IMG/VR virus record: IMGVR_UViG_3300011335_000231
Coordinates: 1 to 58,814 of that record
Strand: one strand, 5' to 3'
Length of the DNA stretch: 58,814 bases
Source of the DNA: a virus
Taxonomy: Duplodnaviria; Caudoviricetes
In this document: piece after piece, positions 1,649-58,814 of the stretch
Position numbering within the stretch: position 1 is the first letter of the stretch
Layout of the letters: the number at the start of each line of letters is the position of its first letter
Notes under the pieces: model-generated
What the model saw: only the letters and a program-made list of their open reading frames with translations
What the model was told of the DNA's origin: nothing
The model's database searches: none
Made by a program: the position numbers and the translations under genes

Positions 1649-3258
1649 AGCATCATTCCCTCCATAGTATCTGCTACCTCAAACATTCTGCCAGTGTCTT
1701 TGTTGTAAAGCAAGCTGCAAGCAGGACCAGTTTGTCCACTGTATCTATTCTTCAACACCCTAACCTTGGTGGTGTTGCGCTCAATAGGATCATCGTGCTG
1801 TCCATTTCTTTCCAGTGATATCACCATGTCACTAAGTTGTGCTATAGCTGCACTGCCTCGTAGCTGAGCTAGGCTAGTGGCTGCACCTTCTTCATGTCCC
1901 TTATCAGAGGGACGCTTGAGGTGGCTAACAATGATGAGAGCAATGTTAGTTTCCTGCACAAGCATGCGAAGCTTGGTCATAATTTCATCAATTGCCTTAC
2001 GTTCATCACCATTGTCCTGACTGGATACGATGATGCTTAAGTGGTCTAAGAATATATACTTACAGCCTAGTCCCTTAGCCATATATTTAACACGATTGAC
2101 AATGTTCTCAATGGCTGTACTTCCGAAGTGATCAAAGAAGAACAAGCGTCCAGTGCCTAAGGTCTTCTCAAATGCATCCTTGCGTACAGCATCAGACACT
2201 ACAGATGTAGGCAAGTGTAAGGGGGCATCAGCAGCTAGGCTCATCATCGATAGTGAAGTTTTGCGAACACTCTCTTCAAGAAACATCAAGCCAATGTTAG
2301 TGTCACTATTCTGTAGAAGATGCCAAACTATTTCTCTTAGGGTTTGACTCTTACCTAAGCCACTACCTGCTGTGAATGTAACCAGTTCCCCTGCTCTAAT
2401 GCCATAGGTAATTTCATTCAGCCCCTTCCAAGGATAGAAACAGTCTGCTACTTCCATTGGTTTAGATACTAGTTCCCATAGACTAGAGCCACACACAATG
2501 CCATCAGGCACGAATGGTTCTGCTGCCCACCATCTAGATACAAAGGCAGCTTCCTTGTTATCAGCAAGCCACTCACATGCATCCTTGTATGCAGGATCAG
2601 GTTTAAATATCTTGCACTTGCTACCAAACAATTCAGCAACTTCCTTTGCTGCCTTCTGTCCTGCCTCATCACCATCAAAGCACAGCACAATGTTTTCAAA
2701 GCTGTTGATGTATTCGTAATTTGCTTTGGCATCCTTCAATGCACTACCTGCGCCTGTGCGTATAGACACCACGGGATATTTACTGCCTGTCAATTGGTAT
2801 GCAGCCAGTGCATCAAACTCACCTTCAGTGATGGTCAGGTACTTGCCATTGGAGGGGTACAGGTTCTGTCCAAACAGAGTACCCTTACTCCACCCACCCA
2901 CTGTTGTAAACTTCTTGTCCTTCACCTCTCTACGCTTAGCCGCCACCAGTTGGGAGTTGCTATCGTAATAGGGAAAGTAGTAGTGGCCTTCGCTACGAAC
3001 TACACCATAGCGTTCCATTGTAGTTTTGTTAATGCGTCTGTCTGAGACACTCACACTAACGCCTTCGTTGTAGCTTTTAATAAAGCCACTTGTATCTTTT
3101 GTTTCACTATCTACATCAATCACTTCAAGTCTTTCGTTGTTAGTTGATGGGATGTATGTATCACATACAAAACATTTAGTGGACATGTCTTCATTCAGTG
3201 ACAAACCATCACTGCTGCCACATGTCTCACAAGGTAGGTGGGTTTTTAGAAATGCCAT
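1645..3258 (-). CDS. T7 gp4-like DNA primase-helicase
   Basis: Zn ribbon CETC..CFVC, TOPRIM EGEFD/FDGD, SF4 Walker A AGSGLGKS, DHL, LRGS, KNR. Confidence 0.95.
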   Translation of the reverse strand: MAFLKTHLPCETCGSSDGLSLNEDMSTKCFVCDTYIPSTNNERLEVIDVDSETKDTSGFIKSYNEGVSVSVSDRRINKTTMERYGVVRSEGHYYFPYYDSNSQLVAAKRREVKDKKFTTVGGWSKGTLFGQNLYPSNGKYLTITEGEFDALAAYQLTGSKYPVVSIRTGAGSALKDAKANYEYINSFENIVLCFDGDEAGQKAAKEVAELFGSKCKIFKPDPAYKDACEWLADNKEAAFVSRWWAAEPFVPDGIVCGSSLWELVSKPMEVADCFYPWKGLNEITYGIRAGELVTFTAGSGLGKSQTLREIVWHLLQNSDTNIGLMFLEESVRKTSLSMMSLAADAPLHLPTSVVSDAVRKDAFEKTLGTGRLFFFDHFGSTAIENIVNRVKYMAKGLGCKYIFLDHLSIIVSSQDNGDERKAIDEIMTKLRMLVQETNIALIIVSHLKRPSDKGHEEGAATSLAQLRGSAAIAQLSDMVISLERNGQHDDPIERNTTKVRVLKNRYSGQTGPACSLLYNKDTGRMFEVADTMEGMML

Positions 3259-3481
3259 AGCCTTTATAAGTTACTTTGTTGGTCTTCAATACTTGATCGT
3301 ATCCATTAAACAGCTTAGTCATTCTAGCATCGTGTAGGCTGTGAAGTCCAATTAATAAATTGGCAAGCTCGTCTTCATCGGGTTGCTTCTCTCTGTCCAT
3401 CAACACCCACAGGATGGAGTCAATGTCCTCCTTAGTTATCCAAGCAGCCATGATGAGGTCTTCAAGTTCATGTAGTTTCAT
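3227..3481 (-). CDS. Hypothetical protein
   Basis: 84 aa; tiles the operon. Confidence 0.7.
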   Translation of the reverse strand: MKLHELEDLIMAAWITKEDIDSILWVLMDREKQPDEDELANLLIGLHSLHDARMTKLFNGYDQVLKTNKVTYKGYGISKNPPTL

Positions 3482-4753: not shown

Positions 4754-5850
4754 GTTAGTCCTCGCATTTCCTGTGTCACTGTTGCACTACGCAAAGTGTT
4801 CTTGATGTATGGTGTTAGGCTCTGCGGGGTAGCATGACCCGACACCGACATGATGTTGGTGATGGGTACACCCACCTCAATCATCTCTGTAATGGCTGTC
4901 CTTCGTAAGTCTTGTAACACTAAATCACTAGGCAGATTTGCATCAGCTAAGATTTGCTTAGCCACTCTAGACAAGTTGAACAGACTGTAAGGAACCAGTC
5001 CACCCTTCCTATCAGGCACATTAGATGGAGCAATGTATTGCTGCCAACCAAACTCAGCATGTTGTTGTCTCAGCATGGTGAGCAAGCCTTGGCTTGTCGG
5101 GATAGTCACCCTAGACCTACGCTTGCTTTGTTCCAAGTGCAACACACCCTTCTCCAAGTCTACTTGATCCCATCGTAGCTTACGCATGTCACCCATACGC
5201 TGTCCATATTCGTATGCCATCTGCACAATGAGTCCTACATTACGCCACTTGAATGTGCTGTATGCAGTGTTCATGAATGCTCTAACATCTTCCCTAGTCC
5301 ATACAGTTCTGCGAGGTTTGTCTGCTCTTCGTAGCACCTTGCTGAATGGGTTGTGGGTGATGTAGCCATGACGAATAGCGAAGTTGAATAGCAAGCGATA
5401 GACAGCCAAGGTGTGGTTAGCTAGGCTAACACTGTGCTCAGCATGTGTTTCATATATCTTCTGACAATGGGGTGTCACTAAGCTACCAAGCTTGCATTGA
5501 TACAGAGCAACACCATTGGCCTTACTATCCCGCCATCCCTGTAGGTAATACATGTAGTCACGCTGTGCCTTAATGCTCAGCTTGGTGAAGGTGATGTTGT
5601 TCTTGTAAGCTTTGATAAGCTCATGCACTCTTGTATCTTCAGAGATATCTTTAAGATATCTAAGCTCTTTACGCCAGTTGTCTAGCATAGCATTGAGTTC
5701 TTCGGCTAAGGCAAAGGCTTTGTCCTTCTCAGTGCCAAGCACACGCCTAGCCACCACCCCTGCATCCACTGCATCCTGTGGTGGGTTGTAGCGGTACTTG
5801 GTAACACCTTCGGTGGCCTTAGCCAAGGTTACATAGCGAGGTAGGCTCAT
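4750..5850 (-). CDS. Tyrosine recombinase / integrase family protein
   Basis: GQR..D, QSKR, QDLRRT (HxxR position), SGH, C-terminal Tyr. Confidence 0.9.
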   Translation of the reverse strand: MSLPRYVTLAKATEGVTKYRYNPPQDAVDAGVVARRVLGTEKDKAFALAEELNAMLDNWRKELRYLKDISEDTRVHELIKAYKNNITFTKLSIKAQRDYMYYLQGWRDSKANGVALYQCKLGSLVTPHCQKIYETHAEHSVSLANHTLAVYRLLFNFAIRHGYITHNPFSKVLRRADKPRRTVWTREDVRAFMNTAYSTFKWRNVGLIVQMAYEYGQRMGDMRKLRWDQVDLEKGVLHLEQSKRRSRVTIPTSQGLLTMLRQQHAEFGWQQYIAPSNVPDRKGGLVPYSLFNLSRVAKQILADANLPSDLVLQDLRRTAITEMIEVGVPITNIMSVSGHATPQSLTPYIKNTLRSATVTQEMRGLT

Positions 5851-6220: not shown

Positions 6221-6396
6221 TGCTTCCTCGCCTCCATCATCAGGTCAGCCATCTTGTATGCCCTTGCAGGGATCTCTTCTTGCTTTAAGACCCAAGCAGG
6301 GCCATGCATAGCTTCCATAACCTTAGCTGCAAAGTAGTCACGCAAGGTCATACCAAAATTACCTTCGTCAGGGAAAGCGTATTTTAAATCATTCAT
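6217..6396 (-). CDS. Conserved small phage protein (GMTLRDYFAAK family, 59 aa)
   Basis: AFP..GMTLRDYFAAK..AY.MAD.M..AR. Confidence 0.85.
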   Translation of the reverse strand: MNDLKYAFPDEGNFGMTLRDYFAAKVMEAMHGPAWVLKQEEIPARAYKMADLMMEARKQ

Positions 6397-7225
6397 CTGT
6401 TCCTCCTAGTGCATATAGTGCTTCAGCCATATCAATGAGTTCATCCTTCTTCATCAGCTTGTCAAGCCATCGTGTAGGTATGCCCTTCAGTCCATACTTA
6501 CGCCCTGCTAACATACCTGTCACTGCACCTACAGTGTCAGCATCATAGCCTTTGTTTACTGCCATCACTAAAGCTTTCTCAAAGCTTGATGTTTCTCTAA
6601 CACATTCCCATGCCATGTTGTATGTATACATAATGCTTCCTGATGCATACACATCACGGAAGTGTTTGAGATAGTCGAAGTTGTCTTCTGCTTTGCCTGA
6701 CATAAGTTCAGCAACAAACCCTGCTATGTAATGCACAGTGTCTGCATTGCCATGTGTCATCAATGACACAGCTATGCTCTGTGCCACAGCACTAGGCATG
6801 TTGTTGTGATTGGCAAGCACAATGGGAGCTACTCGCATAATAGATCCGTTACCACTGGAGCTATAGCTACAGCTACCTGCATAGGGATGTGTTGGTGTGA
6901 TGCGGTCAATGGATTCACTGCATGTCCTGCCAATGTCAAAGACATAGTTGCGAGTACCAAAGTGGCCTGTCTTTTTCCACATCTTAAAGTTCATGGCAAT
7001 GGCCTCAGGATCAAAGCGTTTGCTGCCTATGTATGCATCAGCAATACAGGTACTCATAGCACCATCATCACTGTATTCTCCCACTGCCATGTTATGTACA
7101 CCACCACCAATCATTTCAGTCACTGGCTCTACAATTTCATGAGGCCGTAGGAATTCATTAGGAGCACCCAGTGCATCCCCAATATACAGTCCCATAAACA
7201 TTCCGATTGCTTTATCCTGATGCAT
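6389..7225 (-). CDS. ADP-ribosylglycohydrolase (DraG/ARH family)
   Basis: GDALG, YSDD, GNGSIMR and DADT metal-binding motifs. Confidence 0.92.
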   Translation of the reverse strand: MHQDKAIGMFMGLYIGDALGAPNEFLRPHEIVEPVTEMIGGGVHNMAVGEYSDDGAMSTCIADAYIGSKRFDPEAIAMNFKMWKKTGHFGTRNYVFDIGRTCSESIDRITPTHPYAGSCSYSSSGNGSIMRVAPIVLANHNNMPSAVAQSIAVSLMTHGNADTVHYIAGFVAELMSGKAEDNFDYLKHFRDVYASGSIMYTYNMAWECVRETSSFEKALVMAVNKGYDADTVGAVTGMLAGRKYGLKGIPTRWLDKLMKKDELIDMAEALYALGGTDE

Positions 7226-11867: not shown

Positions 11868-12274
11868 ACAAAGTCCCTCATGTAAATAACACCACGCTTG
11901 ATGCCATCTGCCATCGGCATCACCTTCATTGCCACCACATCAGCCTTGTCCACAGGTTGTTCAGTGGTCTTGTATACAAAACTGTCATACTTATAAGGGT
12001 TATAAGTAACTTGCCTACCTACAATGCTGATGAAATCAAATTGATTGTCAGCTCTGTTGGTGCAGTAGTTAATCCAAGTGCCACTAACACCAGCATGTAC
12101 ATTCTTACGCTTCTCTCGAAGCACTCGCTGTCGCCCTGCCTCAGACACCATCAGCTTGCATCCATCAAGCACCACAGTGTCACGATGGGCAACTACTCTG
12201 CCCTTGTCAGCACCTTCCAAGGCTTTAATGCTGAAGCATTTCTTGTGTAAATTAAAGTAGACAAATACTCTCAT
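11864..12274 (-). CDS. Conserved phage early protein (VYFNLHK..KRKNVHA family)
   Basis: Recognisable motifs including YNPY. Confidence 0.85.
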   Translation of the reverse strand: MRVFVYFNLHKKCFSIKALEGADKGRVVAHRDTVVLDGCKLMVSEAGRQRVLREKRKNVHAGVSGTWINYCTNRADNQFDFISIVGRQVTYNPYKYDSFVYKTTEQPVDKADVVAMKVMPMADGIKRGVIYMRDFV

Positions 12275-12483
12275 GTTGTTGCCTCAGCCAGTGCATTTTC
12301 ACTGTCAATTGTTATCTGATCAAACACCTGTTGCTTCGTGCCTTTGTAACCCATCCCTTTAAGAATTGCATAGCAAGTCTTACCTTTGGATGTTAGTCGC
12401 ATTCCCACCATCTCCAATCTAAGACCTTGTCTTAGAGAACGGAGACGGAAAGCTTCGATTTTCTGTGGAGTATCTAGTACCAT
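12271..12483 (-). CDS. Hypothetical early protein
   Basis: AAGGA SD before MVLDT at 12483. Confidence 0.75.
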   Translation of the reverse strand: MVLDTPQKIEAFRLRSLRQGLRLEMVGMRLTSKGKTCYAILKGMGYKGTKQQVFDQITIDSENALAEATT

Positions 12484-12615
12484 TGTGTTTCCTTTCAGGA
12501 AGAGTTGCTTGAGAGAAGAAGTTACTGTAAGTAACATCCTCTCAGAAACCCACTGTCTAGCACCGACCCCAGTGCCACAATGGAATTGTCTCTCATATAC
12601 ATTATCAACATGATG

Positions 12616-12688
12616 TATTAGCATGTCCTATGCATTCACCCTGCATAGACTGGGCTGATCCATAGTGATGACGCAAGCCTTGCTAATA
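12616..12688. ncRNA. Candidate three-way-junction structured RNA
   Basis: Stems TATTAGCA/TGCTAATA, CTATGCA/TGCATAG and GGCT/AGCC within a 340-nt intergenic gap. Confidence 0.45.
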
Positions 12689-12715
12689 GCATGCACCCTC
12701 ACCGACTTCAGTCTT

Positions 12716-12751
12716 AATTTTTAAAGAACATTCGTTTGAAGCTTTGCTTCA
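12716..12751 (-). promoter_or_regulatory. rrn-like boxB-boxA antitermination element
   Basis: Hairpin TGAAGC-AAA-GCTTCA followed by TGTTCTTTAAAAATT on the minus strand. Confidence 0.55.
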
Positions 12752-12792
12752 CAGCAGGGCTTCACCCTATAGAGAATACTCAATGGCACTCT

Positions 12793-12814
12793 GAAAAGCC
12801 CCTAAGGGCTTTCC
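12793..12814 (-). terminator. Hairpin/terminator after the GP88-like gene
   Basis: AAAGCCC-TTAG-GGGCTTTT. Confidence 0.5.
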
Positions 12815-12823
12815 GGAAGGTCA

Positions 12824-13540
12824 TCAAACAACAAAGCCAGTGGTATCAAGCTTCGCTTTACCTTTAGCATACAAACCGACAATGACTTTGTCATCAAGGT
12901 GACGAACATCAGAGTTGTCTCCAGAGACAACAGGGATTCCCATAAAAGTAGCAGGGATATCTTGTTCCTTACGGAACACTACTGCCATTCTCATGTTGTT
13001 AAGCAAAGCTTTTTGAACGAAGGGTTGAAAACCCTCAACACCGCTATAACTGAAAGTTAAATCATAATTAGCAGGTAAATCTTTACGATTTACATCCTTG
13101 GTGTAGTCATAGAAAGTAACCTCAGGGAAAGCGGCAAATATGTTTACATATTCAATGCCATCAGTATCAGTAAAACCTATGGTTTCCCACCGAATGTCAC
13201 TAGTACCATTCAATCTAACCAAAGGCTGTAAGCCTTTCTTCTTTGCTTTCTTAATAATTTTGGCAATATCAACAACAAGTTGTTGCATGAAAGTATTTCG
13301 CTCTGTAAAAAACCAAATGGTTTTGTTGATTCGAGCCGTTTGAACGGAGTTCATAGCACCTCGCCCTGCTTTGTACAAACAGGCCACATCACATTTGGCA
13401 GTCTTTGCCATAGAACAAGTGTTCCACTTGGTAGTTGTTGCCGGAGCTAGATAGAGAATGCCAGTTAAGAAACCTAAGGTTTCTCCCTTGACAGTTTTGG
13501 CATCGGACGACACAGAAAGCAGAGCTTTAGACTTGAACAT
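12824..13540 (-). CDS. GP88-like protein (Cys cluster, radical-SAM-like)
   Basis: C.......C...C, VRLNGTSD, FYDYTK, YDLTFS, GD..D.R.LD, GL.AKG. Confidence 0.8.
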   Translation of the reverse strand: MFKSKALLSVSSDAKTVKGETLGFLTGILYLAPATTTKWNTCSMAKTAKCDVACLYKAGRGAMNSVQTARINKTIWFFTERNTFMQQLVVDIAKIIKKAKKKGLQPLVRLNGTSDIRWETIGFTDTDGIEYVNIFAAFPEVTFYDYTKDVNRKDLPANYDLTFSYSGVEGFQPFVQKALLNNMRMAVVFRKEQDIPATFMGIPVVSGDNSDVRHLDDKVIVGLYAKGKAKLDTTGFVV

Positions 13541-13587
13541 TTTGTTTCCTTTAGGAAGGTTGTGGCAACATTGCCGTTGAGGTTTCA

Positions 13588-13616
13588 ATTATATCGATCA
13601 ATAAAGACCATGTCAA
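13588..13616 (-). promoter_or_regulatory. Consensus sigma70 early promoter
   Basis: TTGACA-17-TATAAT, perfect match. Confidence 0.9.
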
Positions 13617-13853
13617 TCACAGGGCTTTTCTGCTACCAACAAGGGTTTTACCCTTGAACAACAGTGCCTCATCGTAACATCCCATCCACTGTAATGCTTC
13701 AGCTTTGCTGAGTGTGTAATGGTGTTTCTTGAAACCGACACCAGTTACTTTGTAACCAAACTTTTTGGCAACCAGTGCCATTGTGTCGTCTTTGACGGCA
13801 TAGATGAACGATGCAAGTGATGCAAAGAAAATTGTAGGGGCAATGTATTCCAT
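13617..13853 (-). CDS. Hypothetical early protein with hydrophobic N-terminus
   Basis: AAGGA SD; 78 aa. Confidence 0.75.
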   Translation of the reverse strand: MEYIAPTIFFASLASFIYAVKDDTMALVAKKFGYKVTGVGFKKHHYTLSKAEALQWMGCYDEALLFKGKTLVGSRKAL

Positions 13854-13882
13854 GATTTGTTTCCTTTAGGAAGGGTTAAAAA

Positions 13883-14206
13883 TTAAGCTCGGGCTTTGCT
13901 CAGTGCCAACAATTCGGCATATCCTGCTTCTTCTGAAGCATATTCATGACCTTTGAGAGCTTCTATGATACGGAGTTCATCACAAAGATAACTTCTGAAT
14001 TCAGTGATCTGAGAGTCAGAAAATTCCCCTTTTGTCAGGATGCTTCTAATGAACTTCTGAGTTTTCCGACCCTCAGAATCGTGAAACTCTTCAAGGACAT
14101 CCCAAAGGATGTCACCACAGTTATCAAGAACTGCTTTTGCTAGATTCAAAAAGCGAACCGGATCAGGTTGGTTTTGGTCAACAACTTTCATCTTCATGTC
14201 TTTCAT
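13883..14206 (-). CDS. Hypothetical protein, first gene of the early arm
   Basis: 107 aa; start codons lie within a long hairpin and no clear SD. Confidence 0.6.
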   Translation of the reverse strand: MKDMKMKVVDQNQPDPVRFLNLAKAVLDNCGDILWDVLEEFHDSEGRKTQKFIRSILTKGEFSDSQITEFRSYLCDELRIIEALKGHEYASEEAGYAELLALSKARA

Positions 14207-14282
14207 TTAATGAATTCAAGAGAAAATACCCTTTTTTCACTACCATGAAAAAGGATATTTTCTCTATTAAATGAAAGACATG
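14195..14282. repeat. Long imperfect inverted repeat 1
   Basis: CATGTCTTTCATTTAA/TTAAATGAAAGACATG plus an inner ~20-bp stem. Confidence 0.9.
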
Positions 14283-14305
14283 GATTCAGGCATGTAGGCG
14301 CAGAT

Positions 14306-14374
14306 CTTTCTATATTTAAACAAAAGAAGATGCCAACAAGTTGGCATGTCTTTTGTGATTATAAATATAGAAAG
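14306..14374. repeat. Long imperfect inverted repeat 2
   Basis: CTTTCTATATTTA/TAAATATAGAAAG, ACAAAAGA/TCTTTTGT, ATGCCAAC/GTTGGCAT. Confidence 0.9.
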
Positions 14375-14384
14375 TAATAGAGAC

Positions 14385-14570
14385 TTATCCACAACTTGTT
14401 CTTGGCTCGGTTTGGCAATCGGTGGATAACCCAGTGTTGTGCTGTGGATAACTTTGGAAATTGAAGGTTGTTGATAACTTTGGTTTTGCTGTGGATAACT
14501 TTACCGATTGGGGTATTCTCTTTAGAGGGTGGTGGATATACCGACCCTTCTGTCAATGGGGTTATGCAAA
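14385..14570. promoter_or_regulatory. DnaA-box cluster
   Basis: TTATCCACA at 14385; TGTGGATAA at 14443 and 14490; one-mismatch boxes at 14421 and 14469; weaker boxes at 14531 and 14562. Confidence 0.8.
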
Positions 14571-14614
14571 AAAAGCATAACTTTTTTGACACTTTTTAAC
14601 CATGAGAACCGATT

Positions 14615-14712
14615 TTGAATCAGTATTCAAGATCTTCTAAGTCCTTGAATTCATTAAAGAATCTTTTCTTTGAGTTGAATGCAGTTAAGATCTTTGAATC
14701 ACCTAGAGATCT
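14615..14712 (+). repeat. AT-rich TTGAAT..AGATCT repeats
   Basis: Units start at 14615, 14645, 14675 (30-bp period) and 14694. Confidence 0.65.
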
Positions 14713-14742
14713 GCATCGCATTGCAGGGCTGCTACGGCTGCA

Positions 14743-14782
14743 GGGCTGGGCGGCAGCGGGGCGGGGCGTGGGCCAGTGGGGG
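14743..14782 (+). other. G-tract cluster (G-quadruplex-forming potential)
   Basis: Six runs of at least 3 G within 40 nt. Confidence 0.6.
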
Positions 14783-14874
14783 TGTAGGCGCTATTGTATA
14801 TGGCCTCGTCCAAAAATCAGGAAAATTGAGTCTGTTAACCAAACTCCATATTTGGCAGCTTCCACACACCCCTA

Positions 14875-14986
14875 AAACAATTAGGGACAGATCAACTTTA
14901 GCGATCTGCACCGTCAACTACCCAGAGATGTGTACACGCTAGTATAGGAATTGTTCAGTATTCTAAACAATTAGGGACAGATCAAC
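14875..14986 (+). repeat. 22-bp direct repeat, two copies
   Basis: AAACAATTAGGGACAGATCAAC at 14875 and 14965. Confidence 0.9.
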
Positions 14987-15171
14987 ACTACACATAAAGA
15001 TGCACAAACAGCTACTAAGCGGTAACATATATGTTACTAGATAAGAACTATTCTCATTGAAATTTCATGCAACTTGATACTTAAAAGCTTTGACTAGATA
15101 CTTAAACTACACCCCCATATGGACCATTTTGTTATTTAGGCAATATTTCTGATTGTCCCTACAGAAAAAGC

Positions 15172-15200
15172 TTGACATTGGTTTCAATGTGTGTAAAACT
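15172..15200 (+). promoter_or_regulatory. Sigma70-type promoter heading the late arm
   Basis: TTGACA, then TAAAAC(T) after 16 nt; weak -10. Confidence 0.5.
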
Positions 15201-15203
15201 ACC

Positions 15204-15662
15204 AGTACCTGCACCATGTATGCCTAGAGCATACAGGCGATACGAAACAAAGTATGAGCTACCTTCCGGCTACAGGTAAAGAAATGAGCTTGCAATCGGC
15301 TGCTGAAGAGAAAAGACTCAGAGAGAACAATAGAGGGGCCACTCTGTTGTTCTACTTTGGACACTGGCAGTGGTACACCTTACACTGACCAGACTAGACT
15401 TGATGTGGGTACTTGTTAAAAGCTGTTGCTAAAAGGGTGGGCTAACAACAGCCATAGATGAACACATCCCTTATGGGCTTTCTAGGTGTATGTTCTAGAT
15501 ATTAGTGGTAGGTGGTATGTATTTCATAATGTGATATGTACCGTTCCCTACAGGTAATGGTAGTAGTTTCTTCACAGGACTTCTACCGTTACCTTCATAG
15601 ACACTATAGACATACATTGGGATAGGTTGTTATGTGTAGCAATAAATGCTACCATACCACCT
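15204..15662 (+). ncRNA. Candidate large structured ncRNA
   Basis: No ORF of 60 aa or more; at least 8 stems, several with G-U pairs that work only on the plus strand. Confidence 0.55.
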
Positions 15663-15694
15663 TAGCTAGGCTATGTGTGTTAGCATGAAGCATT

Positions 15695-15976
15695 ATGAAC
15701 TTATACACCCGACAACAGCTAGATGATAAAGGTTTAACAAACACATACCCCTACAGTGTAGCTACACAAGCTTCACTAGCGTTACACAGAGGTTATGTAG
15801 ACAAGATGCATTTATTCCACAGTGATGTTTATTATGTTAGAGCAGCACTAGAGAAAAACACAGGATATGTATTTCCCTTAGACAGAGTTGAAGATGCTAT
15901 GAGAGCTGAGGGATGGAAAGAACACAGACACCTACCAAAGAAGAAACAACATGGCAACAAAGAAAAGTACAGTTAA
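15695..15976 (+). CDS. Hypothetical protein
   Basis: 93 aa; first ORF of the late arm. Confidence 0.7.
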   Translation: MNLYTRQQLDDKGLTNTYPYSVATQASLALHRGYVDKMHLFHSDVYYVRAALEKNTGYVFPLDRVEDAMRAEGWKEHRHLPKKKQHGNKEKYS

Positions 15977-16130
15977 TGCTGCTGGCAATTACACCAAGCC
16001 TACAATGCGTAAGGCGTTAGTTGCTAGTGTGAAGGCTGGAACTAAAGGTGGTGATGCTGGTGAATGGTCTGCTAGGAAAGCACAGCTTGTTGCTAAAAAG
16101 TACAAAGCTGCTGGGGGTGGTTACAAATGA
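15951..16130 (+). CDS. Small basic protein (DUF5872 N-half-like, 59 aa)
   Basis: NYTKP.MRK..GG..GEWSARKAQ..YK.AGGGY. Confidence 0.8.
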   Translation: MATKKSTVNAAGNYTKPTMRKALVASVKAGTKGGDAGEWSARKAQLVAKKYKAAGGGYK

Positions 16131-16360
16131 AAGCTTCTCAGAAGTCTTTAAAAGATTGGACAGCCCAGAAGTGGACTACTAAGTCTGGTAAGCCCTCTTC
16201 TAAAACAGGAGAGAGATATCTGCCTGAAGCTGCCATTAAGTCTTTAAGCTCTGCTGAGTATGCAGCCACCACCAAAGCCAAGCGTGAAGGTACAAAAGCT
16301 GGTAAGCAGTTTGTTAAACAACCTAAAGACATTGCTAAGAAAGTGAGCAAGTTTAGATGA
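16127..16360 (+). CDS. Small basic protein (DUF5872 C-half-like)
   Basis: QKSLKDWT.QKW.T..ERYLP..A...LS. Confidence 0.8.
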   Translation: MKASQKSLKDWTAQKWTTKSGKPSSKTGERYLPEAAIKSLSSAEYAATTKAKREGTKAGKQFVKQPKDIAKKVSKFR

Positions 16361-16626
16361 TTAAAAAAGGCACTGAAGAGTTTTCAGGGTATAACAAGCC
16401 TAAGGCTACCCCTAAGCATCCTACGAAGAGTCATGCTGTGTTAGCTAAAGAGGGTGATACAGTGAAGCTCATTAGGTTTGGACAGCAGGGTGTTAGTGGT
16501 GCTGGAGCAAATCCAAGCACTCCTAAGGAGAAAGCTAGGCAGAAGAGTTTTAAAGCTAGACATGCTGAGAATATAGACAAGGGTAAGATGTCTGCTGCTT
16601 ATTGGGCAGACAAGGTTAAGTGGTAA
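16357..16626 (+). CDS. Small basic phage protein
   Basis: HPTKSH..IRFGQQG..SFKARH..SAAYWA..VKW. Confidence 0.8.
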   Translation: MIKKGTEEFSGYNKPKATPKHPTKSHAVLAKEGDTVKLIRFGQQGVSGAGANPSTPKEKARQKSFKARHAENIDKGKMSAAYWADKVKW

Positions 16627-16641
16627 CTAAAAGGAGAAACT

Positions 16642-17013
16642 ATGGCTACCGATGCAGAGAAAGTTAAGATGTACCGTGAGAAGGCTAAGGACACTTCCAT
16701 TCCTCAAGAGGTGCGTAACACCTATTTGGATAGGGCTAATGAACTAGAGCGTAAGGCTTATGAAGAGACAAGGAAGGCTCCTACTGCTCCTGAGACAAAG
16801 CTTGCTAAGGGTGGTATGGCTAAGAAGGCTCCTGCTGCTTCTAAGAAGCCTATGCTTGCCATTATGATTGGTGTTGGTAAAGCTCCTGCTAAAGATGCTT
16901 CTAAAAAGACTCCTGCTAAATATATGGAATTTTCCAACAAAGGAAAACCAAAAGGCATGGCTCCTGTTAAAGCTATGGCTAAAGGCGGTATGGCTAAGAA
17001 GGGTAAGTGCTAA
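16642..17013 (+). CDS. Lys/Ala-rich protein with two AKGG motifs
   Basis: AAGGAG SD. Confidence 0.8.
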   Translation: MATDAEKVKMYREKAKDTSIPQEVRNTYLDRANELERKAYEETRKAPTAPETKLAKGGMAKKAPAASKKPMLAIMIGVGKAPAKDASKKTPAKYMEFSNKGKPKGMAPVKAMAKGGMAKKGKC

Positions 17014-32505: not shown

Positions 32506-33435
32506 ATGTCCAAAAGAGTAGGTGGAATTCTAAGTGCTGGGCGTAACGGCATTAACTACCCTGTCACATCGGTGGAATACCTTGTTGTGGCTGGCGGGGG
32601 TGGTGGTGGGTATTGTAGTGGTGGTGGTGGTGGTGCTGGAGGTGGTGGTGCGGGTGGCTTGTTAACCGCTACTGCATACGCTGTCACTGTTGGTTCTTCA
32701 ATCACAATTACTGTTGGTGCTGGAGGTTCTGGTGGAACTTCAGGTGCTGGTTCTCAAGGTGCTACATCAAGTATCGTAGGTGGTACAACAATTAGTGCAA
32801 CTGGTGGTGGTGCTGGCTCTGGTATTTCTTCTGGTGCTGGTGGAACTGGTGGTTCTGGTGGTGGTGGTAATGGTAATGGTTCAACTGCTGGTGGAAGCGC
32901 AACATCAGGTCAAGGCTATGCTGGAGGTGCTTCCAATAGTCCTACTGCCAACGGAGGTGGAGGTGGAGGCGGCTCTGGTTCAATCGGCATAAATGCTGGC
33001 CCTGCGGCTTCAAGTTCAAGTTCAAGTTTTGGCGGTAGTGGTGGCACAGGCACTAATTCTTCTATTTCAGGTTCAGCAATTCAATACGCTGGCGGTGGCG
33101 GTGGTGGAATGTATTTTGGAAGTAACTCTGTTGCATTTAATTCTGGATTAGGTATTGCTGGTGGTGGTAATGGTGGGTTATTTATTAACGCATCTGGTTC
33201 AGGAACAAATGCAACTTCTGCTATTGCTAACACTGGTTCTGGCGGTGGTGGGGGTGGAGGTGCAAATGCTGGAAGTTTTGCACAAATAGGTGGCGCAGGC
33301 GGCTCTGGAATCGTAATCCTACGCTACCCATCTTACTTAGCCCCTGCCACATCAACAACAGGCTCACCAGAAACTTATGTCACAGGCTTTTGGCGTGTGT
33401 ACAGATTCGTAGCCTCTGGCACGATTACTTTCTAA
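32506..33435 (+). CDS. Glycine-rich tail protein, paralog 1
   Basis: VEYLVVAGGG...GGSGIVILRYP...SGTITF. Confidence 0.85.
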   Translation: MSKRVGGILSAGRNGINYPVTSVEYLVVAGGGGGGYCSGGGGGAGGGGAGGLLTATAYAVTVGSSITITVGAGGSGGTSGAGSQGATSSIVGGTTISATGGGAGSGISSGAGGTGGSGGGGNGNGSTAGGSATSGQGYAGGASNSPTANGGGGGGGSGSIGINAGPAASSSSSSFGGSGGTGTNSSISGSAIQYAGGGGGGMYFGSNSVAFNSGLGIAGGGNGGLFINASGSGTNATSAIANTGSGGGGGGGANAGSFAQIGGAGGSGIVILRYPSYLAPATSTTGSPETYVTGFWRVYRFVASGTITF

Positions 33436-33443
33436 GGGTAAAT

Positions 33444-34343
33444 ATGGCTACAGGACTTTTTACACTTAGACAACAAAACCAAGCATTAAGACAAGGTGCT
33501 TGGAGTGGTACGCAAAAGACTGCTTGGGTTGAATATCTAGTTGTCGCTGGTGGTGGTGCGGGTGCTATCAATAGGGGTGCTGGTGGTGGTGGCGGTGGCG
33601 GTTTATTAACTGGCATATTAAATGTTGCTACTGGTGTTTCTATCACGGCTACTGTTGGTGCTGGAGGAACTGGAGGCACAGGTGCTGTAACTAGCGGTGC
33701 AAATTCAGTATTTGGCTCTATTACATCTACTGGAGGTGGTGCTGGCGGTTCAAGTAACCAAGCATCTTTTAACGGCTCGTCTGGTGGCTCTGGTGGTGGC
33801 GGTGCGGGTAGTGCTGGCTCTAGTGGTTCTGGAGGACAAGCAACTTCAAATCAAGGCAATACTGGTGGCACTTCATCAGGTGGTGCTACTACTTCAAACA
33901 GTGAAGGTGGTGCAGGTGGTGGCGGTGCTGGAACAGTTGGTTTAAACGCAACTGTTGCAACATTTGCCGCAAATGGTGGTGCAGGTATAGCATCATCAAT
34001 CAATGGAACAGTTACTACATACGCTGGAGGAGGTGGTGGTGCGGCTAATGGCACAAGTGGTTCAACCGCAGGTGCTGGTGGCGTAGGCGGTGGCGGTGCT
34101 GGTAGGGCAATTTCACAAGGTAATGGTAACGCTACATCTGGAACTGCCAATACAGGTGGCGGTGGTGGTGGTCATCCAAATCAAACCATAACAGGTTCAT
34201 CAGGCTCTGGCGGCTCTGGCATTGTCATCATCCGCTACCCAAGCACATTTGCTGATGCGGCAAGCGTGACAAACGGCACAAAGACAACTGCTAACGGCTA
34301 CACGATTTACACATTCACTTCTAGCGGGTCAATCACAATATGA
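33444..34343 (+). CDS. Glycine-rich tail protein, paralog 2
   Basis: Same terminal motifs; start MATGL. Confidence 0.85.
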   Translation: MATGLFTLRQQNQALRQGAWSGTQKTAWVEYLVVAGGGAGAINRGAGGGGGGGLLTGILNVATGVSITATVGAGGTGGTGAVTSGANSVFGSITSTGGGAGGSSNQASFNGSSGGSGGGGAGSAGSSGSGGQATSNQGNTGGTSSGGATTSNSEGGAGGGGAGTVGLNATVATFAANGGAGIASSINGTVTTYAGGGGGAANGTSGSTAGAGGVGGGGAGRAISQGNGNATSGTANTGGGGGGHPNQTITGSSGSGGSGIVIIRYPSTFADAASVTNGTKTTANGYTIYTFTSSGSITI

Positions 34344-35197
34344 GCAACCTATTAGGCGGCTATTTATCCGCAACCTTTAACCCTTTGAGTGGCGCACCTA
34401 CTGCTGTTGAATACCTTGTGGTTGCTGGTGGTGGTGGGGGTGGATATCTTGGAGGTGGCGGAGGGGCTGGTGGTCTTTTGACTGCCGCTGGATTTGCTGT
34501 TGCCTCTGGTTCTGCTTTGACTATTACAGTAGGCGCTGGCGGTGCTGGGGCAACTACATCAAATGGTGCGTCAGGCGTTAATGGTAGTAATTCTGTATTT
34601 TCATCTATCACTTCAACTGGCGGTGGTGGTGGTGGTACAAATGATAATCCTCCAAATGGTACTGGTCAAAATGGTGGCTCTGGCGGTGGTGGCGCTTCAT
34701 CTGGTTCTGTAAGAGCGGGTGGAACTGGAGTTTCTGGGCAAGGTTTTGCTGGAGGTTCTAGCGGTGGTGCGGCTTCAAACTATGGCTCTGGTGGCGGGGG
34801 TGGTGCTGGTTCTATAGGTGTAAATGGAACAGGTAGTACAGCAGGCGGTGGTGGTGCGGGTCTTTGCTCAACTATTACTGGTTCTAGAGTTTTTTATGCT
34901 GGCGGCGGTGGCGGTGGTTTGCAAGGTTCGGGTGGTGTTGCAGGACTCGGTGTTGCTGGCGGTGGTGATGGTGGTTTGACTAACCAAGCAGGAACAAATG
35001 CAGTTGCCAATACTGGTGGCGGAGGTGGAGGCGGTGGAAATAGTGGCTCTGGTGGCGCAGGTGGCTCTGGCATCGTAATCATTCGTTACCCTGCAACACA
35101 ATCAGCACCAACTGCAACAACTGGCTCACCACAAATTTCATACGCTGATGGCTACCAGATTTACACTTGGACAAGTTCTGGGACTGTGACATTCTGA
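34340..35197 (+). CDS. Glycine-rich tail protein, paralog 3
   Basis: Same terminal motifs. Confidence 0.85.
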   Translation: MSNLLGGYLSATFNPLSGAPTAVEYLVVAGGGGGGYLGGGGGAGGLLTAAGFAVASGSALTITVGAGGAGATTSNGASGVNGSNSVFSSITSTGGGGGGTNDNPPNGTGQNGGSGGGGASSGSVRAGGTGVSGQGFAGGSSGGAASNYGSGGGGGAGSIGVNGTGSTAGGGGAGLCSTITGSRVFYAGGGGGGLQGSGGVAGLGVAGGGDGGLTNQAGTNAVANTGGGGGGGGNSGSGGAGGSGIVIIRYPATQSAPTATTGSPQISYADGYQIYTWTSSGTVTF

Positions 35198-35859
35198 TGA
35201 ACACTAAAACTTGTACAAAATGCCAAACTGAGAAATCAGTTGACTTGTTTCATTTGTGCAGAAACAAACCTATAGCCGTTTGCAAAGAATGCAAGAAGGC
35301 TTATGGTCGCCAGTATTATATTGACAACAAAGAAACAGTTAAAGTTAAACGGGCGGCTTATCAAAAAGCACATCGACCTGAACAATACGAACACTTAAAA
35401 AAGTGGCGCAAGAATAACCCTGAAAAATCCCGTGAAGCAGGTAGACGGCAATATGCGGAAAACATTGAACATCATAGAGCAGTTAAAAATGCTTGGAAGT
35501 TGCAAAACCCTGAAGCAATTAAAAGTGCTTTAGAACGCTACAGGTTACAACATTTGCCAAAGATGGCTGAAAAGTCACACAAACGCAGAGCAAAGTTGCG
35601 TGGCAATGGCGTGTTTCAAGTTACCGAAAAAGAGTTAATTCGTTTATACGCATCGCCATGCGCCCATTGTGGCACTATGGAAAATGTAACAATTGACCAT
35701 ATCATTCCTGTTGCTCGTGGCGGTAGACATAGCATTGGGAATCTGCAACCATTATGTTTAAGTTGCAACTCTAGCAAAAATGCCAAAACAATGGCTGAAT
35801 GGAAATATTTTTTGAACACTGAAAGGACTCAAAATGGCGCACTACGCTCATGTAACTAA
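35197..35859 (+). CDS. HNH homing endonuclease
   Basis: CAHC..DHIIP..GG.H..NL..LC..CN..K. Confidence 0.9.
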   Translation: MNTKTCTKCQTEKSVDLFHLCRNKPIAVCKECKKAYGRQYYIDNKETVKVKRAAYQKAHRPEQYEHLKKWRKNNPEKSREAGRRQYAENIEHHRAVKNAWKLQNPEAIKSALERYRLQHLPKMAEKSHKRRAKLRGNGVFQVTEKELIRLYASPCAHCGTMENVTIDHIIPVARGGRHSIGNLQPLCLSCNSSKNAKTMAEWKYFLNTERTQNGALRSCN

Positions 35860-36178
35860 TGGCATCGTAGATCAGGTAATTGTGATTGATGCCGAGACTC
35901 TGGCTTTGGGACACTGGGGTGATCCAAGTGAATGGGTGAAAACCTCGTATAACACGCATGGGAATCAGCACCCAGAGGGCAGACCTCTCCATAAAAATTA
36001 CGCTGGGATTTCATACACATGGGATGGCACAGGATTTGCCCCGCCACAACCATTTGCATCATGGACTAAGAATTCTGAGACATACCTGTGGGAAGCCCCA
36101 ACACCTATGCCTACTGATGGCAAGTTTTATCGTTGGGAAGAATCTACATTGTCATGGGTTGAAGTAACGAGTGCCTAA
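35834..36178 (+). CDS. Small tail-associated protein
   Basis: MAH.A..W..TSYN..KNYAG..F..PQP..SW..W.AP.P.P. Confidence 0.8.
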   Translation: MAHYAHVTNGIVDQVIVIDAETLALGHWGDPSEWVKTSYNTHGNQHPEGRPLHKNYAGISYTWDGTGFAPPQPFASWTKNSETYLWEAPTPMPTDGKFYRWEESTLSWVEVTSA

Positions 36179-36179
36179 T

Positions 36180-36671
36180 ATGTTTGAACTTACGCAGTCT
36201 TTGTTAAAGGAAATGTTTTCCTACCATGCTGACGGATATTTAATTCGTCATAGCAATGGCAAAGCTGTGGAGTCCAAACTTCACAAAAACCATCGGTATG
36301 CCCGTGTGGTTATTAACAACAAACCTTACGCAATGCACAGGGTTATTTTTCTATATCATCATGGATATTTGCCAAAAGTAACAGACCATATTGACAATGA
36401 CAGGCTAAACAACCGCATTGAAAATTTGCGTTCAGTTACACACCAGCAAAATTCTTTGAATAGAAAACGTGACTTTAATAGTGCATCACCTTATAAAGGT
36501 GTTAAACCAGCCAGCAGACCAAGAAAAGATGGTTTTGTGCCTTGGGAAGTAAGCGTGTCAATAAACAGAAGGCTAGTGCATCTTGGTACATTTGATGACA
36601 TTGAAGTTGCCAATCAAGTAGCAATTGCGGCTAGAGAAAAACACCACGGGCAGTTTGCCCGTCACACATAA
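36180..36671 (+). CDS. HNH endonuclease with AP2-like C-terminus
   Basis: HR..F..DHID..RLNNRIENLR; YKGV..HLG.F..A..A....HG.FA. Confidence 0.9.
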   Translation: MFELTQSLLKEMFSYHADGYLIRHSNGKAVESKLHKNHRYARVVINNKPYAMHRVIFLYHHGYLPKVTDHIDNDRLNNRIENLRSVTHQQNSLNRKRDFNSASPYKGVKPASRPRKDGFVPWEVSVSINRRLVHLGTFDDIEVANQVAIAAREKHHGQFARHT

Positions 36672-36681
36672 GGAGCGCAAA

Positions 36682-37620
36682 TTGAGCCAATATTCTGGGA
36701 TGTGGACACTCTCGCAGGTGTCCCAAGCTGTAAAAGACAATAACTGGACTGGCATCCCTGCCCAGAATGTGGAGTATTTGGTCGTTGCTGGTGGTGGCGG
36801 TGGCGGTGCTTATACAGGCGCTGGCTCTGGTGGTGGAGGTGGAGGTGCTGGTGGTTTGCTTGCTGGCTTTTCAGGCGTAACTGCGGGAACTCAACTTTGG
36901 GTAACTGTAGGTGCTGGCGGGGCAGGGGGTATTGGCACTGGTACTAATTCCATTTCAGGCTCTAATTCAGTTTTACTTGCCGCATCTTCTGGAGCAACTA
37001 CAGGAAATATTGTTGCTTCTGGTGGTGGTAATGGCGCAATGTATAACTTTGCCACAACTGGTGGTTCTGGTGGTTCTGGTGGTGGCGGCTCTGGCGGTGC
37101 TACAGCAGGTGCTACAGGATATGGTGGCTCTGGTATTTCTGGACAAGGAAATACTGGTGGAAATGGAATGAACATTGGGTCAGCTTCTGGCTATGGCGGT
37201 GGCGGTGGAGGCGGTGCTGGAACTGTAGGATTAAGCACAACTGCCGCAACTTTTTGTGGAAATGGTGGTGCGGGTATTGCCTCTGCTATTAGTGGAACTG
37301 TTACGACATACGCTGGTGGCGGTGGGGCTGGTGGTTATTCAATAAATGGTGGCTCTGGCGGTGCTGGCGGTGGTGGAGCAGGCGGCACAACTAGCGCATA
37401 CGCAGGAACTGCTGGAACGGCTAATACAGGCGGTGGTGGTGGTGGTGCAGGGTCTGCGGGTGCATCCTTTACTGGCGGTGCAGGCGGTTCAGGTATCGTA
37501 ATCCTCCGCTATCCAGACACATTCAGAGCCGCTACAAACACAACAGGCTCCCCAACAATCACTGTGGCTGGAGGCTTTCGGGTCTACAAGTTCACAGCCT
37601 CTGGCTCAATTACTTTCTAA
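36682..37620 (+). CDS. Glycine-rich tail protein, paralog 4
   Basis: TTG start after AAGGAG; same terminal motifs. Confidence 0.85.
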   Translation: MSQYSGMWTLSQVSQAVKDNNWTGIPAQNVEYLVVAGGGGGGAYTGAGSGGGGGGAGGLLAGFSGVTAGTQLWVTVGAGGAGGIGTGTNSISGSNSVLLAASSGATTGNIVASGGGNGAMYNFATTGGSGGSGGGGSGGATAGATGYGGSGISGQGNTGGNGMNIGSASGYGGGGGGGAGTVGLSTTAATFCGNGGAGIASAISGTVTTYAGGGGAGGYSINGGSGGAGGGGAGGTTSAYAGTAGTANTGGGGGGAGSAGASFTGGAGGSGIVILRYPDTFRAATNTTGSPTITVAGGFRVYKFTASGSITF

Positions 37621-58172: not shown

Positions 58173-58814
58173 TTAATGTGTCTGTTTCCAGTTGTCCCCA
58201 ACCTTACCTTCGGCATCAACTGGACAACGGAAACCTAAAGCTTCACCTGCCTTGGTTGCTGCTTGCTCTATGAGCCTAGCTGCTTCCTCTGCCTGATCTT
58301 CTCTAACTTCCCATTGTGTTTCGTCATGAACAAACGCTAACAGTTTAGCATCTATTCCCTTCTCTTGCAACAGCTTTGTTGATTCAACAAGCCATTGTTT
58401 AGCAATGATAGCACCTGCACTTTGTAACAAAGTATTCAATGCTGCATGCTCAGATCTAACCCACACTCTCCTGCCATCTAAAGCAGGGAGGTGCCCCTTA
58501 GCCATGAGCCTAGATATCTTCTTCTTCAAGGCAGAAAGGCCGGGAGTATTATTGATAAAGCTATCAATAAGTTTCTTGCCTTTGCTACTGTTACCACCAA
58601 CAATGCTTCCAGCTTTAGCTGCCCCTGCTCCATACAACACACCATATGTCAGAGTCTTGGTAACATTCCTAGCCTTCTTATGCTCAGGATTGTTATCATC
58701 TTTCACAGTGCCTTTGTCAACTAAGCCAAAACTCTGTGCATTGAACCAGTGGATATCACCTTTAAGCAACTCAGTGATCCACTCTTGGTCATTGAGATAG
58801 TTACCTAAGCAGCG
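58173..58814 (-). CDS. polA: Family A DNA polymerase, C-terminal part (motifs B and C)
   Basis: R...KT..YG.LYGAG, N.LLQS, VHDE, G.NW..TH. Confidence 0.95.
   Translation of the reverse strand, partial: RCLGNYLNDQEWITELLKGDIHWFNAQSFGLVDKGTVKDDNNPEHKKARNVTKTLTYGVLYGAGAAKAGSIVGGNSSKGKKLIDSFINNTPGLSALKKKISRLMAKGHLPALDGRRVWVRSEHAALNTLLQSAGAIIAKQWLVESTKLLQEKGIDAKLLAFVHDETQWEVREDQAEEAARLIEQAATKAGEALGFRCPVDAEGKVGDNWKQTH

Follow-up and report, generated by a model that had tools for sequence, protein, structure and literature searches.

A convergent array of DnaA boxes beside a promoter-like and palindromic cassette in a freshwater HMO-2011-type podovirus

The virus record IMGVR_UViG_3300011335_000231 (58,814 nucleotides (nt); hereafter the window, which is the entire IMG/VR record, with a completeness estimate of 100%) carries a compact array of boxes for the host replication initiator DnaA. 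The array core at 14385-14498 (114 base pairs (bp)) consists of three perfect and two one-mismatch DnaA boxes. It lies inside the sole large non-coding gap, where both gene arms diverge, and the minimum of the cumulative GC skew coincides with its position. Judging from the sequence, the array is of a known kind, a DnaA-box cluster, found here in an abundant type of podovirus, where it appears as an optional and convergent element fused to a promoter-palindrome cassette. It is probable that the phage ties its own start-up to host DnaA.

Clustering, conservation and arrangement of the boxes

The five boxes of the array and two weaker sites were located by motif scan, supplemented in two cases by a repeat scan.

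14385..14393, plus strand: perfect box TTATCCACA, inverted relative to the rest of the array (motif scan)
14421..14429, minus strand: box TTATCCACC, one mismatch, first of four co-oriented boxes (motif scan)
14443..14451, minus strand: perfect box TTATCCACA, within a tandemly duplicated 47-bp two-box unit (motif and repeat scan, families D1 and D3)
14469..14477, minus strand: box TTATCAACA, one mismatch (motif scan)
14490..14498, minus strand: perfect box TTATCCACA (motif and repeat scan)
14531-14539, minus strand: two-mismatch site ATATCCACC (motif scan)
14562-14570, plus strand: two-mismatch site TTATGCAAA (motif scan)

The four co-oriented boxes on the minus strand are spaced at 22, 26 and 21 bp and face the single box on the plus strand. 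An earlier reading made from the sequence alone (the sequence-only reading) had described the three perfect and two one-mismatch boxes, this spacing and the facing box, and the motif scan confirmed them. It had counted seven boxes in all. Seven sites are present, but the two weaker ones are not likely to be true DnaA boxes: the one at 14562 falls within a hairpin that resembles a terminator, and the one at 14531 belongs to a GGTATATC motif with a conservation of its own, which is kept in box-less relatives too.

The clustering is far beyond chance. Seven sites with two mismatches or fewer fall in 186 bp, versus 0.81 expected per 190 bp (251 genome-wide). The total of boxes with one mismatch or fewer in the whole window is ordinary, 20 versus 18.2 expected, yet five of them lie within 120 bp here, which agrees with the expectation of the sequence-only reading that boxes would cluster only at this locus. 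Three of the four perfect boxes in the window are in the array. In 300 dinucleotide-preserving shuffles, scored for the largest box cluster per 120 bp, the maximum was one box in 191 shuffles, two in 107 and three in 2. No shuffle gave four or more.

Relatives were collected from IMG/VR via the neighbouring GP88-like protein (80 loci, 41-98% identity). Upstream sequence of at least 1200 nt was available for 72 loci, and the other eight were shorter. Within 200 bp at the same locus, at least three boxes are present in 41 of the 72 relatives, at least four in 19 and at least five in 15; four of the eight shortened loci nonetheless hold 3-5 boxes. Array-bearing relatives carry 3-6 boxes at the same spot. 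As a background control, distant GP88-like homologues on bacterial and archaeal genome contigs showed a cluster at only one of 76 loci, which is the nearest one (L204, six boxes). In each of the two complete box-bearing relatives, three of four perfect boxes sit in the cluster, and the three complete box-less relatives (52-60 kb) have 0, 0 and 1 perfect box genome-wide. This conservation at the same place (41/72), together with the complete relatives, rules out that the segment is a chimeric host fragment, a possibility that the sequence-only reading had raised against itself. Many early open reading frames (ORFs) track the array among relatives, but this mirrors relatedness, and association with neighbouring genes was rejected as confounded.

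Box statistics were taken from 44 unique clusters (the window, IMG/VR relatives and L204); their sequences are related, and the counts are not independent events. Among 171 clustered boxes, 102 are perfect and 69 have one mismatch. The changes are at positions 1, 3, 5, 6 and 9, once at position 7, and never at positions 2, 4 or 8. Non-cluster boxes in the same loci are perfect in 3 of 120 cases and have mismatches at every position. The clusters contain several TTATCCACA 9-mers, and their variation is confined to positions that DnaA tolerates, a substitution pattern that looks DnaA-like. In an alignment of 40 unique sequences, conservation is higher in the boxes than in the intervening spacers. 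Despite the relatedness of the sequences, number, spacing and position vary from array to array, and this points to a maintained function.

The arrangements in the 43 unique clusters of the window and its IMG/VR relatives, 41 of which are convergent, are as follows.

Two direct and one inverted box: 21 clusters
Four direct and one inverted box: 12 clusters
Three direct and one inverted box: 4 clusters
One direct and two inverted boxes: 3 clusters
Five direct boxes: 1 cluster
Six direct boxes: 1 cluster
Three direct and three inverted boxes: 1 cluster

The form with four direct boxes is a tandem duplication of the 47-bp two-box unit, and one RNA-library contig has an additional unit of about 46 bp. 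Box pairs only 2-3 bp apart are observed in L034, L041, L078 and L204. The variants are distributed by box position. TTATCAACA is the commonest variant in relatives, and 26 of its 27 occurrences are at direct boxes. The variant TGTGGACAA is frequent at the inverted box, with 15 of its 16 occurrences there, and gives TGGACA.

Other repeat arrays occupy the same position in some relatives. About nine TTATATAAG repeats stand directly before the six DnaA boxes in L204 (4040-4280), five tandem 30-bp units are in the same intergenic position in L072 (about 5140-5300), and three repeat units of about 57 bp are in the same gap in L040 (about 3210-3330). These arrays suggest exchangeable protein-binding modules.

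DnaA-box arrays extend beyond the HMO-2011-type lineage and are scarcely described in print. At least 121 IMG/VR viral contigs (4-155 kb, including loci L285-L364) have three perfect co-oriented DnaA boxes with gaps of 2-17 nt, a pattern for which the chance expectation in IMG/VR is, by our estimate, far below one match. Prophage flanks or plasmid-like phages may be among these contigs. Full-text search found no description of DnaA with HMO-2011-type phages, and the RCA-phage paper (PMC6918029) has no promoter passage, while none of its five uses of the word "origin" is about replication. The novelty suggested by the sequence-only reading thus holds for HMO-2011-type phages, but not for lytic phages in general, because conserved DnaA-box arrays have been printed for T5 (bioRxiv 10.1101/866236).

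The cassette around the array

The array is embedded in a cassette found in 51 unique versions, box-less ones included. In the direction of the early genes, its order is the GGTATATC motif, the direct boxes, a 27-nt spacer, the inverted box, 10 nt, a first hairpin (hp1), the word GATCTGCG and a second hairpin (hp2).

14534..14546, minus strand: conserved GGTCGGTATATCC motif, overlapping the two-mismatch site 14531-14539 (alignment)
14394..14420, minus strand: 27-nt spacer between the facing boxes, with an A-rich stretch (AAYAACAA-like) beside the inverted box (alignment)
14306..14374, no strand assigned: hp1, a perfect AT-rich palindrome, 10 nt from the inverted box (repeats I6, I7)
14299..14306, minus strand: conserved word GATCTGCG in minus-strand reading, directly after hp1 (alignment)
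14195..14282, minus strand: hp2, a long hairpin conserved in the first leftward gene's leader, with its end at the ribosome-binding region (repeats I1, I2)

Nearly all relatives keep the GGTCGGTATATCC motif, whether they have boxes or not. A sigma-70 promoter at the GGTATATC motif was considered and rejected, as the nearby TTGACA is only about 10 nt away. The A-rich stretch is better conserved than the remaining spacer (40 unique sequences). The word GATCTGCG, which includes a copy of AGATCT, is kept in 51 unique relatives.

Compensatory changes are observed in 36 of the 64 predicted pairs of hp1 and hp2 in a 15-sequence alignment. The covariation in hp2 includes G-U pairs in the minus-strand reading; hp2 is probably an RNA structure and possibly an RNase III-type leader. 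The covariation in hp1 is almost exclusively Watson-Crick, with one U-G, a pattern compatible with selection that acts on the DNA as such or on each of its two strands. The core of hp1 resembles a bidirectional terminator, and its 5' arm contains a -10-like TATATT. Rfam has no family for either hairpin and gave just sub-threshold microRNA-like hits to hp2.

The inverted box supplies a -35-like TGGATA on the minus strand (14391-14386). The -10-like TATATT (14369-14364) in the first arm of hp1 is 16 nt from it, and the match is 9/12. The box thus overlaps a predicted core promoter element, as expected of a DnaA-regulated promoter. In the main clade, TGGAYA-16/17-TATWTT scores 8-10/12, and TGGACA-17-TATATT reaches 10/12 in several relatives. 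TGGACA, the product of TGTGGACAA, is a better -35 element than TGGATA. The preference of TGTGGACAA for the inverted box and of TTATCAACA for direct boxes suggests that the inverted box doubles as a DnaA site and a -35 element. The boxes are also flanked by an AT-rich candidate unwinding element: the 40-mer 14349-14388, which adjoins the inverted box, is 78% AT and has a free energy (dG) of -40.7; only five other distinct 40-mers in the genome are less stable.

Four metatranscriptome runs were compared over 12000-17000, as assembled contigs of relatives that carry no strand or end information. The flanks on either side are spanned by these contigs, with sparse coverage over 14338-14504; palindromes and repeats interrupt contigs, and no inference is drawn from them on transcription of the array.

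The phage and the surroundings of the array

The portal of the window is 67-75% identical to those of MW202701 (an uncultured freshwater podovirus), Roseobacter phages CRP-345 and CRP-1, and Puniceispirillum phage HMO-2011. This identity indicates that the window is a freshwater HMO-2011-type podovirus. The assignment agrees with the gene content and with a comparison of the layout with the HMO-2011 record: the portal and other core proteins are similar to those of HMO-2011 and CRP phages, and there are two divergent arms, DNA polymerase A, integrase, ribonucleotide reductase and ThyX. The stretch was matched in DNA runs from riverine and freshwater studies.

The T7-type replisome named by the sequence-only reading was recovered with Pfam and PHROGs: DNA polymerase A, a Toprim-DnaB primase-helicase, a gp2.5-like single-stranded DNA-binding protein and a 5'-3' exonuclease, along with two endonuclease VII genes. 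Further genes encode ribonucleotide reductase, ThyX, a tyrosine integrase, and SU10-type portal and adaptor proteins. In line with that reading, neither Pfam nor PHROGs detected an RNA polymerase among the window proteins, and an ESM Atlas look-up of the 1707-aa protein gave no RNA-polymerase lead. The DNA polymerase A gene is split over both record ends (9-1304 and 58173-58769), so the record is a circular or permuted assembly that was opened at an arbitrary point. At its ends, the near-identical relative behind L004 has direct repeats, and the repeats at the record ends of relatives are of the assembly type. No tRNA or attP clue to the host was found. A Polynucleobacter isolate contig (54% identity) has just one gene in common with the window and was not used as a host lead.

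Leftward genes extend up to 14206 and rightward genes begin at 15695, which places the array, as proposed, at the strand switch, in an ORF-poor gap of 1.5 kb between the diverging arms. The following features are on either side of the array.

13588..13616, minus strand: perfect sigma-70 consensus promoter TTGACA-17-TATAAT before the GP88-like gene (promoter scan)
13883..14206, minus strand: first leftward early ORF, start ATG at 14206, 14197 or 14191 (ORF list)
14561..14587, plus strand: terminator-like hairpin with T-run, containing the two-mismatch site 14562-14570 (read from sequence)
14720..14790, plus strand: G-rich block, 15-35% AT, right of the array (composition, DNA search)

The first leftward ORF has no family match in Pfam, PHROGs or the small-protein search, and it varies among relatives, being present at 9 of 80 loci. 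The TTGACA-17-TATAAT promoter type recurs in relatives, which indicates that host RNA polymerase reads the early genes. The terminator-like hairpin is kept in close relatives. A search of GenBank phage DNA with 13800-15800 gave a sole match of 82 bp, to the G-rich block, which is the only intergenic stretch matching the box-less MW202701 (80.7% over 82 bp). Similar blocks are also found in L031 and L072. The block has several runs of 3-5 G and could form a G-quadruplex.

The 22-nt word AAACAATTAGGGACAGATCAAC has exact copies at 14875-14896 and 14965-14986, 90 bp apart, and appears nowhere else in the genome at three mismatches or fewer (0.09 expected). The pair may be an operator or promoter element of the rightward arm. 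Elsewhere in the window, four paralogous Gly_rich_2 tail-fibre-like genes are in a row at 32506-37620, split by HNH endonuclease genes at 35167-35859 and 36171-36671. This arrangement looks like homing endonucleases within a paralogue array. The early arm also contains an ADP-ribosylglycohydrolase gene at 6389-7225 (Pfam E 1.7e-52), which could have a counter-defence or host-takeover function.

Possible roles of the array

It is tentatively proposed that the array works as a DnaA-gated promoter plus unwinding element, acting as an origin or in early control; DnaA binding, promoter activity and origin function of the array are inferred. The array would be a landing pad for the host initiator DnaA, attached to a conserved early-control cassette. 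DnaA on the facing boxes would bend the DNA, and would either help melt the adjacent low-stability palindrome or set the activity of the promoter transcribing into the palindrome. The opened or R-looped DNA would then be the entry point for the self-loading primase-helicase and DNA polymerase A, with replication running outward, co-directional with both gene arms. Phage start-up would be coupled to the level of host DnaA, a reporter of growth state. Since the array is dispensable in sister genomes, it would be an enhancer or sensor and not the core origin. Given the overlap with the -35-like element and the covarying palindrome, neither of which the sequence-only reading had mentioned, classical opening by DnaA is no likelier than initiation coupled to transcription or control of the promoter.

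Parts of this design have counterparts in known systems. T4 oriF and oriG and the T7 primary origin are promoter-plus-unwinding-element origins. They share with the array a promoter-like element that reads into an AT-rich, easily melted segment, and a helicase that needs no host loader; in contrast to it, they rely on phage-modified or phage-encoded polymerases and are not known to have DnaA boxes. In lambda, host DnaA reportedly affects the transcriptional activation of the origin, the subject of a paper listed as reference 49 in PMC8477408, and a similar logic is proposed here. The datA and DARS loci, and the plasmid or P1-type origins with DnaA boxes and iterons, are small box clusters outside oriC that alter DnaA availability or help a replicon fire. 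L204 resembles the plasmid origins in joining iteron-like repeats with boxes. Unlike these systems, the window has no IHF site at 14200-14750 and no Rep, initiator or partition family among its 70 proteins (Pfam, PHROGs), and iteron-like repeats are found only in some relatives.

The interpretation given by the sequence-only reading has partial support; its name for the array, an oriC mimic, overstates the case. The array shares with oriC multiple high-affinity boxes, tandem and facing, beside low-stability DNA, as set out in the consulted parts of two papers on basal unwinding (PMC8287927, PMC6669920). According to the former, basal unwinding takes no fewer than three DnaA-trios (NAN), which lie within 16 bp of a box and lead to the segment that is unwound. 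The inverted box has three NAN triplets next to it (AAG AAC AAG; in relatives AAT AAC AAA). Their direction would be into the 27-nt spacer, whose sequence is not rich in AT, and away from the AT-rich palindrome. By our estimate, about one in three random sequences would fit this permissive pattern. The triplets, without significance on their own, are not counted as a DnaA-trio unit. The IHF motif WATCAANNNNTTR and the exact 13-mer consensus have no occurrence in 14200-14750, which is a weak test. Scans of the region for CtrA and GANTC motifs found nothing, and neither a dnaA-like gene nor linkage to dnaA or dnaN was found in the window (Pfam, small-protein search). With no clear DnaA-trio run into AT-rich DNA, IHF site, 13-mer or initiator gene, the array is, as far as its sequence tells, not a copy of oriC.

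The lack of a convincing trio unit, IHF site or 13-mer weighs against the proposed role, and so do several other observations. The promoter match in the window is moderate, the -35 overlap is absent in more distant box-bearing clades, and no equivalent promoter was seen in box-less cassettes. The distance from the box to hp1 is 10, 20 or 31 nt depending on the clade, and about 230 nt in L032 and L034. The GC skew is inseparable from the direction of transcription. AGATCT, at 14302, 14630, 14688 and 14707, is present four times in 550 bp versus about 0.18 expected, which complicates a simple picture based on DnaA boxes. Fewer than three boxes are present in 31 of the 72 relatives, and all seven GenBank genomes of the HMO-2011 type (HMO-2011, MW202701, CRP-345, CRP-1, CRP-3, HTVC033P and HTVC103P) are without three boxes per 200 bp. 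L031 has kept the cassette with zero boxes, whereas in its sisters L032 and L034 the GGTATATC motif is followed by an insertion of five or six direct boxes. The array is thus an optional add-on to the cassette, belonging to an uncultured freshwater sub-lineage. Because box-less sisters keep the cassette and the GenBank relatives have no cluster, DnaA cannot be a general requirement for replication in this phage type, nor can the array be its indispensable origin.

Other functions have to be weighed against a DnaA-gated promoter and unwinding element. DnaA is an established transcription factor at box-bearing promoters, and the array could be a transcription switch alone, at which DnaA represses or activates the leftward early promoter depending on host DnaA-ATP, with no role in replication. 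Throughout the main clade, the inverted box and the -35-like hexamer overlap at a constant distance, and the TGGACA variant is at this box in 15 of 16 cases. Since the following early unit carries a consensus promoter of its own, gating would affect no more than the first one or two small genes. However, four to six mostly perfect boxes exceed the needs of a simple operator, the geometry of box and promoter is lost in other box-bearing clades, and the leftward promoter is putative, with uninformative RNA contigs. A switch alone is therefore considered rather unlikely. The array could also be a sink or modulator of DnaA like datA or DARS, akin to the decoy of the sequence-only reading, by which multiplying phage genomes, with hundreds of high-affinity boxes, titrate or recycle host DnaA; new rounds of the host chromosome would be blocked or derailed and precursors freed for the phage. 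This would suit an optional array of variable copy number (two, four or six direct boxes, and the extra unit of about 46 bp in the RNA-library contig), boxes that are mostly of the perfect, highest-affinity form (102/171), and the three-perfect-box arrays of at least 121 viral contigs, which fit a portable trans-acting device. Yet a pure sink would be free to sit anywhere, and the array is always in the same control region, with a defined convergent layout and, in the main clade, a fixed spacing to the palindrome. No datA-type IHF site was found in 14200-14750, although this is a weak test. A function as a sink is unlikely on balance.

It is also conceivable, but quite improbable, that the boxes are bound by a phage protein of DnaA-like specificity, or that through them the entering genome is tethered to membrane-bound DnaA, as suggested for T5-like phages; in both cases their role would lie outside initiation and promoter control. 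Some marine podoviruses, the HTVC010P-type pelagiphages, are described in the available part of PMC8477408 as encoding a DnaA DNA-binding domain. In the window, no Bac_DnaA_C or other DNA-binding family was found in 70 proteins (E of 0.001 or less) or in 31 small proteins (E of 1 or less). The tether finds its model in the T5 preprint (Davison, bioRxiv 10.1101/866236), the consulted part of which reports eight conserved DnaA boxes among palindromes in the non-coding injection-stop region of 25 T5-like phages, quotes the relaxed box consensus TT(A/T)TNCACA, and proposes, as a hypothesis, that membrane-bound DnaA halts injection. The boxes of the window are likewise among conserved palindromes. 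The two systems have in common conserved boxes of consensus or near-consensus sequence, a large palindrome-rich non-coding region and a replisome of their own. TTATCAACA is the commonest variant in both, and box pairs 3 bp apart occur in T5 and in the relatives L034 and L078. In T5, however, the terminal repeat, which is far from the mapped origins, contains the eight boxes within two inverted-repeat pairs, whereas here, in another phage family, two to six boxes are in facing orientation at a divergent promoter region, beside palindromes and not within them. The T5 tether model is itself only a proposal, and the ends of the window record, which fall inside the DNA polymerase gene, give no indication of the order of entry.

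It is possible, though doubtful, that host DnaA-box arrays represent a portable, copy-number-variable "initiator-capture" cassette placed before a promoter and palindrome in unrelated lytic phages, including T5-like and HMO-2011-type phages. If this is true, host DnaA would fire or time the phage replisome, or would be drained from the host chromosome, and a general, essentially unstudied layer of phage-host replication control would be visible in at least 121 viral contigs. In aquatic environments, HMO-2011-type phages rank with the most abundant viruses, and the array provides a testable handle on how replication starts in podoviruses with a T7-type replisome that encode no RNA polymerase. 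It might show that host DnaA helps to fire a phage origin, that early transcription is tuned to growth state, or that DnaA is sequestered, and the box-less sister genomes would serve as natural controls. As the device seems to recur in T5-like phages, the answer may generalise.

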